Virus record (IMG/VR): IMGVR_UViG_3300032288_005778
Coordinates: 1 to 64,000 of that record
Length of the DNA: 64,000 bases
Reading direction: 5' to 3' (one strand)
DNA from: a virus
Shown in pieces: positions 37,947 through 43,585 of the stretch (positions are counted from its first letter, which is position 1; each line of letters starts with the position of its first letter). The notes under the pieces were generated by a model that saw only the letters and a program-made list of their open reading frames with translations, made no database searches and was not told where the DNA came from. Made by a program: the position numbers and the translations under genes.

Positions 37947-38042
37947 AGCTTCTAACATTTGACCTGCCACAGTTGAGTGAAGGATGACTCAAAAATATTT
38001 TTAAGTAAGTTTAGTGTATATATAAATTATTTATTTTCGGTA

Positions 38043-38071
38043 TTGACAGTTGTTTCTTTATGCTTTATTAT
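38043..38071 (+). promoter_or_regulatory. Sigma70-type promoter (duplicated at 38591; variant at 42219-42191 on the - strand)
   Basis: TTGACA-GTTGTTTCTTTATGCTT-TATTAT. Confidence 0.8.
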
Positions 38072-38102
38072 AGAAATATATAACAACAAGGAGACAAAAA
38101 CT

Positions 38103-38519: not shown

Positions 38520-38648
38520 TCGTTAAACGAGTAAATCTTTAAGTGATTTACTCGTTTTTTTGTATATATAAAATTATTTTAATTTCAGTATTGACAGTTG
38601 TTTCTTTATGCTTTATTGTAGAAATATAGAACAACAGGGAGGCAACAA

Positions 38649-41577: not shown

Positions 41578-41609
41578 TTACTTGCGGATCATGAGAGATC
41601 CGCAAGTAA
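41578..41609 (-). terminator. Hairpin terminator
   Basis: TTACTTGCGGATC/GATCCGCAAGTAA. Confidence 0.65.
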
Positions 41610-41611
41610 AG

Positions 41612-41839
41612 TTAAAATACATCAACTACGGGATTACCGTAGCCCCAGCGGGCATTCCAGGAAAGCCCTGACCAAGTGGTGATACGGGTAATTTTCCCGC
41701 TCTCTACTGTAATACTTGCCTGCTCTGTGGGAACTTCGCCAAAGTGAAATTCATCATTCTTGGGAAAATCAGCACCCAGTAAAGTGCGAAGTGCTGAAGC
41801 ACTCTTCCAATTAGCAATAATAAATTCTTTAACGTCCAT
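41612..41839 (-). CDS. Hypothetical protein downstream of hammerhead 1
   Basis: AGGAG RBS, ATG at 41839. Confidence 0.7.
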   Translation of the reverse strand: MDVKEFIIANWKSASALRTLLGADFPKNDEFHFGEVPTEQASITVESGKITRITTWSGLSWNARWGYGNPVVDVF

Positions 41840-41863
41840 GTCTGTCTCCTGTGGGGTGTAAAT

Positions 41864-41920
41864 TTGGCTTCCCACTACTTGGTAGTTTCGTCCGGTAGCC
41901 AGCCGGACTCGTCAGGTGGG
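41864..41920 (-). ncRNA. Hammerhead ribozyme, type I (short stem III)
   Basis: CCCAC-CUGACGA-GUCCGG(CUGGCUA)CCGGAC-GAAA-CU(ACCA)AG-UA-GUGGG; loop II UGGCU can pair with 3' AGCCA. Confidence 0.85.
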
Positions 41921-41922
41921 GA

Positions 41923-42159
41923 TTAAAAGTGTTTAACACCCCTTCTTCTTCTGACTTTTTCTATGTCACTGTAGAAAAAGTCCTTGGCATCAAAACTAAC
42001 ACGATTACTGCGGGCAAAAGCCGCAGCTTTAATCGGACAATTAAAGAAGTGAAAAGAACACTGGTGTTCTTTATTTGCGTCAAGGTACTCAACTTGTACT
42101 TCCCAAAACTTCTGTTCTGGGGCTTTGCTTAAATAATCTGGTCTTTGTAGAGCTTTCAT
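41923..42159 (-). CDS. 78-aa hypothetical protein between the two hammerheads
   Basis: GGAG RBS and its own TTGACA promoter. Confidence 0.7.
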   Translation of the reverse strand: MKALQRPDYLSKAPEQKFWEVQVEYLDANKEHQCSFHFFNCPIKAAAFARSNRVSFDAKDFFYSDIEKVRRRRGVKHF

Positions 42160-42275
42160 GTTGCTTGTCTCCCTGTTCTTTGATATTTCTATCTTATTCT
42201 ATAAAGAAACAATTGTCAATACTGAAATTAAAATTATTTTATTTGACAAGTGTTTTTATTATAGTGGGTGTAAAT

Positions 42276-42339
42276 TTGGCTTCCCACTACTACCAGGGCG
42301 GTAGTTTCGTCCGGTAGCCAGCCGGACTCATCAGGCGGG
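42276..42339 (-). ncRNA. Hammerhead ribozyme, type I
   Basis: CCCGC-CUGAUGA-GUCCGG(CUGGCUA)CCGGAC-GAAA-CUACC(GCCCU)GGUAG-UA-GUGGG; full consensus core plus pseudoknot. Confidence 0.93.
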
Positions 42340-42340
42340 G

Positions 42341-43585
42341 TTAAGCGGCTTGCAACCACTTTTCAAAAGATTTAATAGGGCGGTTGGCAGTCTCCTGAGT
42401 CTTTTTATAAGCCTCATAAGCTTCTTCTATCGCTCGTTTTTCGGCGAATTTTTTACTCGCTTCTTCTTGAAAGAAGCTTATCCGTGCCATGACAGCATCT
42501 CTATCAAAACCGATGGACACTGAAGTCCTGACTCTATTGGATAAACCGTGTGTCCGGTCGTCAAGGTGTTCCCACACCGTGCCGTCCCTTTCGCTCCAGT
42601 TGAATGAAACGACCATATCATCGCCAACCCAAAAGCGGTTTAAAAATTTGTTATAAACCTCTTTCCGAAACCATTCTGGTTCAGGTATAGCCAACTTGGC
42701 AGCTTCTTCAGATGCTATTTTTGCCAGTCTATCTTGCTCCCAACGAGCGCGGATAGACTCTATCTTGAACACCAACTCAGCAAATGTAATCTTCTCACGT
42801 TTACAATATTCGTACACATACCCTTGCATCAATGCAAGGATTTGTTCTTCAGTGTTAATTTGAAGAAGATTAAGCTTTTCGCTGCACCACAGAGTACGCC
42901 CATCTGCATGGGCGTACTCCCAGACGGTATAGTAGGTTTTATCTGAGTAGATGTCCCCTGAAAAACTTAGGGACTGATTGTAAGTTGATTTAGTTCTTTC
43001 CTTTCCCGTGGGAACAAAGGTTTCCCCCCAGTATTTTCTGGGGAGGTCATGGCAGTAGATGTCTACTGCTGACTCCAAAGATTTTTGGTTAAACATAGCG
43101 CACGGTGCAGCGCTATGATGATATTTATGCCAGTCGTTCAAGCAGGTCAACGCTGACCGAACTTCTTTCAATAGAGGATCAATTTTTTGCTTTTCCTGGA
43201 CTTTATCCCAGGAAACACATTCGTGTAACCTATCAGAATCGCTATCAATATCGCCATAGATAGCGACTTCTAAGTCGTACCAATCCAAATCTTCTGGATT
43301 TAGGCTGGTGGTAATAACAGCCTTTAGTCCAGAGGTGTTTAGCACTCCATTTAATTCATCTGCTAATTTTTTTTGAATTTCAGGGTGAAGTTCACTTACA
43401 TTTATTTTAAACATTATTTTTGTCTCCTGTTTTTGCTGTACCTGTTTTGTCTGTTCCTGTTGCTCAATCTGAGCATCAATACTGATTAACTCATCTACCC
43501 AGCGGTAGATGTTTTGTTGTCCCCTCCCGACGCGGGAGATCAAGTTTACTAGCACCTGTCTTCTGTTTACCAAGTCCATGTCCAT
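42341..43585 (-). CDS. 414-aa hypothetical early protein
   Basis: GGAGG RBS; promoter TTGACA-17-CATAAT at 43646. Confidence 0.8.
   Translation of the reverse strand: MDMDLVNRRQVLVNLISRVGRGQQNIYRWVDELISIDAQIEQQEQTKQVQQKQETKIMFKINVSELHPEIQKKLADELNGVLNTSGLKAVITTSLNPEDLDWYDLEVAIYGDIDSDSDRLHECVSWDKVQEKQKIDPLLKEVRSALTCLNDWHKYHHSAAPCAMFNQKSLESAVDIYCHDLPRKYWGETFVPTGKERTKSTYNQSLSFSGDIYSDKTYYTVWEYAHADGRTLWCSEKLNLLQINTEEQILALMQGYVYEYCKREKITFAELVFKIESIRARWEQDRLAKIASEEAAKLAIPEPEWFRKEVYNKFLNRFWVGDDMVVSFNWSERDGTVWEHLDDRTHGLSNRVRTSVSIGFDRDAVMARISFFQEEASKKFAEKRAIEEAYEAYKKTQETANRPIKSFEKWLQAA

Follow-up and report, generated by a model that had tools for sequence, protein, structure and literature searches.

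Evidence for two type I hammerhead ribozymes between the cistrons of an operon in an uncultured freshwater phage

The DNA analysed here (the window) comprises 64,000 nucleotides, positions 1 to 64,000 of the IMG/VR virus record IMGVR_UViG_3300032288_005778, which is 82,388 bases long. On its minus strand are two elements that comparisons with related sequences support as genuine type I hammerhead ribozymes with a pseudoknot between loop II and the 3' tail, each placed between cistrons. These type I hammerheads with their 5-bp pseudoknot probably cut the operon RNA between the cistrons, and a hairpin in the cut product probably acts as a cap. Processing of a long operon message is the most likely reading of the sequence and is already in print. 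The motif, the covariation, the intercistronic placement and the competing fold described below were all computed here. The two elements, copies A and B, have the following parts.

42341-43585, minus strand: 414-aa ORF preceding copy A, with 1 nt between its stop codon and stem I
42343-42341, minus strand: stop codon TAA upstream of copy A, preceding stem I
42264-42340, minus strand: hammerhead copy A with 3' tail, after the 414-aa ORF
42339-42335 with 42287-42283, minus strand: copy A stem I, CCCGC with GUGGG
42334-42328, minus strand: copy A core CUGAUGA
42327-42309, minus strand: copy A stem II GUCCGG/CCGGAC with loop CUGGCUA, followed by GAA
42305-42289, minus strand: copy A stem III ACUACC/GGUAGU with a 5-nt loop
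42288, minus strand: copy A A17, predicted cut 42288/42287
42320-42316 with 42281-42277, minus strand: copy A pseudoknot, UGGCU with AGCCA
42268-42264, minus strand: CCCAC downstream of copy A
41925-41923, minus strand: stop codon TAA upstream of copy B, preceding stem I
41851-41921, minus strand: hammerhead copy B with 3' tail, after the 78-aa ORF
41920-41916 with 41875-41871, minus strand: copy B stem I, CCCAC with GUGGG
41915-41909, minus strand: copy B core CUGACGA
41908-41890, minus strand: copy B stem II and loop, identical to those of copy A
41886-41877, minus strand: copy B stem III ACU/AGU, 3 bp, loop ACCA
41876, minus strand: copy B A17, predicted cut 41876/41875
41869-41865, minus strand: copy B AGCCA, pairing with UGGCU of loop II
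41855-41851, minus strand: CCCAC downstream of copy B

The initial annotation had described a full core, three stems and a loop II pseudoknot in both minus-strand copies, all of which can be read directly from the sequence. The compatible variation that it saw in stem I, CCCGC (A) or CCCAC (B) against GUGGG, is confirmed, with one G-U pair in copy A, as are the positions of the two predicted cuts, their spacing of 412 nt and the distance of 36 nt between the second cut and the ATG at 41839. It had placed the start of each copy 2-3 nt after a stop codon; both copies do lie close to a stop, but the gap between stop and stem I is 1 nt in copy A and 2 nt in copy B. The elements are 60-67 nt long and have 28 identical bases in common. 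Stem I is open, as in type I hammerheads with a stem I/II pseudoknot, and the AGCCA that forms the 5-bp UGGCU:AGCCA pairing is found one base after stem I in both.

Acceptance rules for hammerheads have been published. They ask for C3 U4 G5 A6 N7 G8 A9, G12 A13 A14, the pair A15.1-U16.1 and H17, and bar a mispair adjoining the core in stems I-III as well as multiple mispairs in short stems (PMC3088659). Both window copies agree with these rules. The required core bases are all present (CUGAUGA, GAA, A-U and A17 in copy A; CUGACGA, GAA, A-U and A17 in copy B), the closing pairs are C-G in stem I, G-C in stem II and A-U in stem III, and there is no mispair next to the core in either copy. The core pattern matches twice in the window against 0.02 matches expected, and two matches were reached in 0 of 100 shuffles.

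Rfam gave no match in the window at gathering scores. At a loose threshold, copy B aligned end to end with Hammerhead_1 (RF00163) at 22.0 bits and E 0.016, below the gathering score of 34, and copy A was matched by a type III model only, in a wrong, permuted register and at 17 bits. The window copies resemble Hammerhead_1 in their open stem I, the same core and the same order of helices, but differ in scoring below gathering, with no type I match for copy A. The relatives fail in the same way: none of 25 matches to our own model (R1, below) in 14 related loci reached any Rfam hammerhead threshold, and at gathering scores these 14 loci gave nothing but a tRNA. The low score is thus a limit of the Rfam model. 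The subfamily as a whole falls below the thresholds, so such ribozymes will go unreported by annotation pipelines. Other loose Rfam matches near the site (THF-II, MESTIT1, STnc420 and a snoRNA) were far below their thresholds and were dropped as chance. The one resembling a THF-II riboswitch is at 42455-42478 on the plus strand, inside the 414-aa ORF and opposite to it, with 23.4 bits against a gathering score of 41.

Because Rfam was silent at gathering, relatives had to supply the evidence. Scanning viral contigs with a pattern gave 39 loci, of which 28 were judged by eye to be true hammerheads and 11 were rejected (L005, L015, L016, L021, L025, L026, L027, L030, L033, L036 and L041) and left out of R1 and its locus search. 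R1 is a covariance model built from an alignment of 25 distinct related sequences. In this alignment 95.7% of the cells pair and 11 of the 21 pairs are changed on both sides, four in stem I, four in stem II and three in stem III. These values were reached in 0 of 500 shuffles, and slid controls were 24-54% paired. Compensatory changes in all three stems show that the RNA fold is under selection. In 12 of the 25 family members a further U stands between A9 and stem II (alignment column 16); the window copies lack it.

R1 scores copy A at 83.5 bits and copy B at 68.5 bits, and gives no third copy in the 82,388-base record. In 30 loci (the 28 viral loci and two stretches of Aphanizomenon phage CL131) it rendered 46 matches at E<=1, 45 of them at E<=5e-5, many with loop sequences outside the reach of the pattern. 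Among 120 loci listed from bacterial assemblies there were at least 20 matches in at least 10 loci, belonging to Firmicutes, Bacteroidaceae or Treponema bins and with up to four copies per locus; the remaining 110 of those listed, including Nostoc, Nodularia and Sphaerospermopsis, had no match at E<=0.001. A match in Faecalibacterium sp. CAG:74 (L105, 1021-1084, minus strand) has U in place of the conserved C3 and may be an inactive or variant copy.

The pseudoknot pairing is kept in 92.8% of the cells of the 25-sequence alignment, which is blind to covariation in the loop because the pattern fixed the loop sequence. Compensatory variants do occur among the R1 matches, namely UGACU/AGUCA, GACC/GGUC and UGGU/ACCA, the last of these in the second copy of CL131. 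Where the loop is other than UGGCU, a 4-bp match between loop and tail was found in 7 of 15 cases against 3.4 expected (largest 8), a weak count in which stem II was misread wherever a row had a bulge. Published work in which pseudoknots of this sort were tested by mutation concerns a type II ribozyme (PMC3088659).

The phage is uncultured, of freshwater origin and CL131-like. Its replicative helicase has 73.9% identity to the CL131 homologue, the runs containing its DNA are freshwater metagenomes, and one source assigns a homologue of its 75-aa protein to an Anabaena sp. MAG; on these grounds a cyanobacterial host is likely. CL131 is the only named phage matched by DNA, and the matching part is the ribozyme itself. 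Megablast of window positions 1-25000 against named phages gave no match, nor did tblastn of the 414-aa protein, and the primase-like ORF has distant hits only. The hammerheads are situated in a leftward regulatory operon with two HTH genes, the 414-aa, 78-aa and 75-aa genes, a ProQ-C-like gene and a methyltransferase. The 414-, 78-, 75-, 133- and 68-aa ORFs are without a Pfam or PHROG family.

A position between genes of the same strand is found in 28 of 39 viral loci, and in all 38 distinct contexts the hammerhead follows a same-strand open frame (taken as the longest one ending nearby, which need not be a gene; one has 44 codons). The next start is 31-74 nt after the cut in 32 of the 38, and one such start (L008, distance 0) is an artefact. 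In seven other viral loci the frame ending at the hammerhead is homologous to the 414-aa ORF (36-80% identity). Clusters of 2-4 copies are frequent across viral and bacterial loci, and L006, L010, L011, L014, L017, L018, L020, L034, L042 and L043 have two or three copies 346-987 nt apart.

A second structure is predicted for the RNA on the 3' side of the cuts. The 67-nt piece of copy A has the hammerhead as its minimum-energy fold (-23.9 kcal/mol), but with 32 nt of tail the best fold exchanges stem I for GUGGG:CCCAC (-25.0 vs -23.9 kcal/mol, the pseudoknot being ignored). A 5-bp downstream complement of the first five bases of the product occurs in 24 of 43 distinct products, against a mean of 11.2 and a maximum of 21 in 500 shuffles; in this count one match, L105, lacked the core by pattern (U at C3) and the row of L080 was mis-parsed. 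The complement is present in 16/16 members of the GUGGG group and 6/18 of the GCGGG group, and it changes together with stem I (GCGAG/CUCGC, GAGG/CCUC, GCGGG/CCCGC). By plain folding the signal is modest, with 25 of 32 products pairing at least four of the first five bases vs 58% of shuffles (mean z -1.4). We read the complement as a trap and cap for the cut product.

Downstream of copy B the window has the following features.

41612-41850, minus strand: 75-aa ORF with AGGAG ribosome-binding site (41850-41846), ATG at 41839
41578-41609, minus strand: 13-bp hairpin, beginning 3 nt past the stop codon of the 75-aa ORF

The tail hairpin of copy B directly adjoins the AGGAG ribosome-binding site. 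Homologues of the 75-aa protein follow a hammerhead in L018, L020, L024 and L029; the protein family is narrow (34 clusters) and has no known function. Copy B travels with this downstream gene, since DNA homology with six relatives starts at its 5' end and L018 has another gene between its copies, and the ribozymes are module borders. After the 75-aa gene, an 81-nt piece combines the 13-bp stem with an outer 8-bp helix and a second, small hairpin; its folding energy is -27.1 kcal/mol (z -6.3), equalled by 0 of 200 shuffles, and the 13-bp hairpin is kept in L029, L035, L037, L039 and L040. With one hairpin at the 5' end of the 75-aa mRNA and another after the gene, the message would be structured at both ends. 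The 13-bp hairpin is palindromic, so that BLAST aligns it in the reverse orientation as well in relatives, and it has no clean U tract.

The segment between the two hammerheads contains a gene and a promoter module that recurs in the window.

41923-42159, minus strand: 78-aa ORF between the hammerheads, ATG at 42159
42165-42242, minus strand: promoter-plus-leader module with -35 at 42219-42214, -10 at 42196-42191 and a GGGAG ribosome-binding site
38568-38645, plus strand: second copy of the module, 83% identical, followed by an ATG
38022-38097, plus strand: third copy of the module, 79% identical, followed by an ATG

The module is laid out as TTGACA, 17 nt, a -10 box, a leader of about 30 nt with a ribosome-binding site, and ATG; the promoter-like site predicted upstream of the 78-aa gene, TTGACA-17-TAAGAT, is a strong one, with 10 of 12 matches. 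Relatives L018 and L029 also have the module, and one RNA contig carries it in identical form with different flanks. The L020 version of the 78-aa protein is equally long and agrees at 65 of 78 residues; of 41 base changes in its gene, 23 are at third codon positions. No terminator-like site was predicted between copy A and the 78-aa gene. Since this gene has its own promoter, much of its RNA would start with a triphosphate and not at the copy A cut, and as the promoter is located between copy A and the gene, processing would be unnecessary for its expression. From its position, copy A looks like a maker of 3' ends for the upstream unit. The proposal that the hammerheads divide the operon into monocistronic mRNAs thus stands as the best reading of motif, covariation and intercistronic placement, but it has to be qualified for copy A, which precedes the promoter of the 78-aa gene.

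In the processing that we consider most likely, each ribozyme would cut after A17 during transcription. The upstream RNA would end in a compact ribozyme with a 2',3'-cyclic phosphate and the downstream RNA would begin with a 5'-OH, with GUGGG refolding onto the CCCAC 14-15 nt further on. Such refolding might free the product, hinder re-ligation and cap the new 5' end. At copy B the hairpin would abut the ribosome-binding site of the 75-aa gene and give a short message with structure at both ends, and copy A would close the upstream unit just before the promoter of the 78-aa gene. Cutting inside the cell is inferred from the sequence, and so is any influence that it has on expression or on the stability of the RNA. 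Of 23 runs listed, four RNA contig sets from three studies contained relatives at 90-99% identity with patchy cover of the locus; no RNA piece listed spans either ribozyme or stops there, and contigs, which do not reveal the ends of RNAs, cannot inform on cleavage. The arrangement inferred for copy B is similar to that of RiboJ, a synthetic insulator in which a hammerhead is followed by a hairpin and then a ribosome-binding site and which removes upstream context. RiboJ differs in being engineered from a satellite RNA ribozyme and in having a hairpin that does not reuse the 3' strand of stem I.

Copy B may contribute less than copy A. A tentative alternative, less likely than processing by both copies though the strongest of the competitors, is that copy B is a crippled relic in which a deletion of about 7 nt in stem III leaves a ribozyme that rarely folds correctly, with only copy A working. 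The initial annotation had noted a stem III of 2 bp in one copy; the short stem is real and belongs to the lower-coordinate copy, B, but has three pairs when A15.1-U16.1 is counted. It is the shortest among the 25 aligned sequences, and at the same place relatives L020, L024, L029 and L037 have six pairs including A15.1-U16.1, as copy A does. The hammerhead is the minimum-energy fold of the 60-nt piece of copy B, yet makes up 0.13 of the ensemble, and once the tail is added the best fold has a 5-bp stem III in a register that is inactive. A stem III of 3 bp, together with an inactive register that is more stable, may make copy B a poor cutter. Against a relic, its core, stem I, stem II and pseudoknot are intact and it is well recognised by R1, and the pseudoknot, which the folding program ignores, may hold the active fold together.

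It is rather improbable that the ribozymes act as a switch that senses translation, in which the ribosome ending the upstream ORF blocks stem I and the core, GUGGG pairs with CCCAC and the ribozyme stays uncut. It is equally improbable that cleavage would in this manner report whether the upstream gene is translated. A ribosome at the upstream stop would have a footprint covering the 5' strand of stem I and the core. In 28 of the 38 contexts the stop precedes stem I by no more than 6 nt or is supplied by the core; in seven of these the upstream ORF ends with the UGA of the CUGA core itself (L006, L010, L023, L028, L032, L042). The two competing folds of copy A are also close in energy. However, tight spacing is to be expected in any densely packed phage genome, the stop is 8-27 nt upstream in the other 10 contexts, and a trap or cap that forms once the RNA is cut accounts for the hairpin just as well.

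A role at the DNA level is unlikely to a similar degree. According to this explanation the conserved repeats of 60-80 bp at gene borders are crossover points that shuffle small cassettes, and the ribozyme is secondary or decaying. In favour of it, DNA homology with six relatives (L024, L029, L035, L037, L039 and L040) begins exactly at 41920, the 5' end of copy B, and in L018 a gene like CL131 gp141 occupies the place of the 78-aa gene between the copies. The counterpart of copy A in L020 (2645-2711, minus strand) has a stem II with the 5' half GGACGG and the 3' half CCGGAC, giving two mismatches, and looks like the product of a crossover inside the conserved loop. The window copies also share one stem II variant and the orthologous copies in L012 and L018 carry another. 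However, the compensatory changes in all three stems reveal selection on the RNA fold and the orientation always matches that of the genes; DNA and RNA roles are not exclusive.

The circles of viroid-like RNAs and retrozymes are mostly non-coding. It had been suggested that the 412-nt unit between the cuts could become a circular mRNA, with read-through RNA cut twice and the piece closed into a translatable circle for the 78-aa protein; this is very improbable, and closure by a hammerhead assembled from the copy B core and the 5' end made by copy A (GUGGG...AGCCA), or by a host ligase of RtcB type, is just as remote. Both 3' products share their first 22 bases, so the copy B core could dock the 5' end made by copy A, pairs of copies 417-438 nt apart are also found in L018 and L020, and the idea itself was raised in PMC3088659. 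Viroid-like RNAs and retrozymes (PMC7761336) are alike in that a stretch a few hundred nucleotides long is enclosed by two hammerheads and has ends that could be rejoined, but here the unit is part of a phage operon and contains a protein gene with its own promoter. With the promoter inside the unit, most transcripts would carry a 5' triphosphate, and the 5' end of the product could be locked in the hairpin. Copy number varies, with single copies in CL131 and three in other relatives, the gene between the copies is a different one in L018, and copy B may be a poor cutter. No joint was found in the four metatranscriptome contig sets, a weak test given the patchy cover and that the RNA comes from relatives, and PMC3088659 states, with data unshown, that circular or spliced products were not detected in comparable clusters. 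Five points leave the circle unsupported: a promoter inside the unit, the hairpin, a copy number that varies among relatives, the lack of joints in these weak RNA data and the negative statement in the literature. Nor would dimeric folding, proposed earlier for the short stem III, help copy B, as the shortened 3' strand is the one next to the cut and pairing with the 5' strand of copy A still gives three pairs; a palindromic stem III/loop III with a long shared stem III is the feature named for dimeric hammerheads such as those of ASBVd and newt (PMC3088659), and that of copy B (ACUACCAAGU) is not palindromic.

Elements of this kind and both functional ideas, processing and circles, have been in print since 2011, and the window is a further example. 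Clustered hammerheads flanking single genes in prophages and phages were described by Perreault et al. 2011 (PMC3088659), who proposed processing into gene-length mRNAs and mentioned circles; tandem prophage hammerheads cleaved in vitro for three sets and in E. coli for one. Those clusters resemble the window pair: several hammerheads lie between cistrons in the direction of the genes, the genes that they enclose vary, and a pseudoknot ties stems I and II. The window differs from them in the host group, in the repeated promoter inside the pair and in the conserved downstream complement of the product 5' end. The HHphage of haloviruses HF1/HF2 likewise sits a short way before the start codon of an early gene of the phage, and the 5' end of a transcript has been mapped there to within 3 nt of the cut (PMC3088659). 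It differs in belonging to an archaeal virus, in a core variant with insertions and in being a single copy, and the passage on it mentions no such pseudoknot. Hammerheads of type III occur mostly in plants or in the circular RNA agents of plants, and those of type I mostly in metazoan genomes (PMC7761336), whereas the window pair belongs to a phage operon.

A literature search rendered no paper linking hammerheads with cyanophages, and the CL131 genome paper has no mention of ribozymes or hammerheads. The locus places the subfamily in phages of bloom-forming cyanobacteria, including the cultured CL131, and CL131 in infected cells is where the purpose of hammerhead clusters can be tested. A testable detail is the downstream complement, which could hold the RNA in the cut state and provide the new message with a cap beside the ribosome-binding site. 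The CL131 genome contains two hammerheads absent from its annotation, the first following gp142 and the second gp131 (MG209611 98349-98441, locus L046; L003 4000-4083). The second overlaps an annotated CDS of 24 aa, 'gp130', which is probably not a gene.
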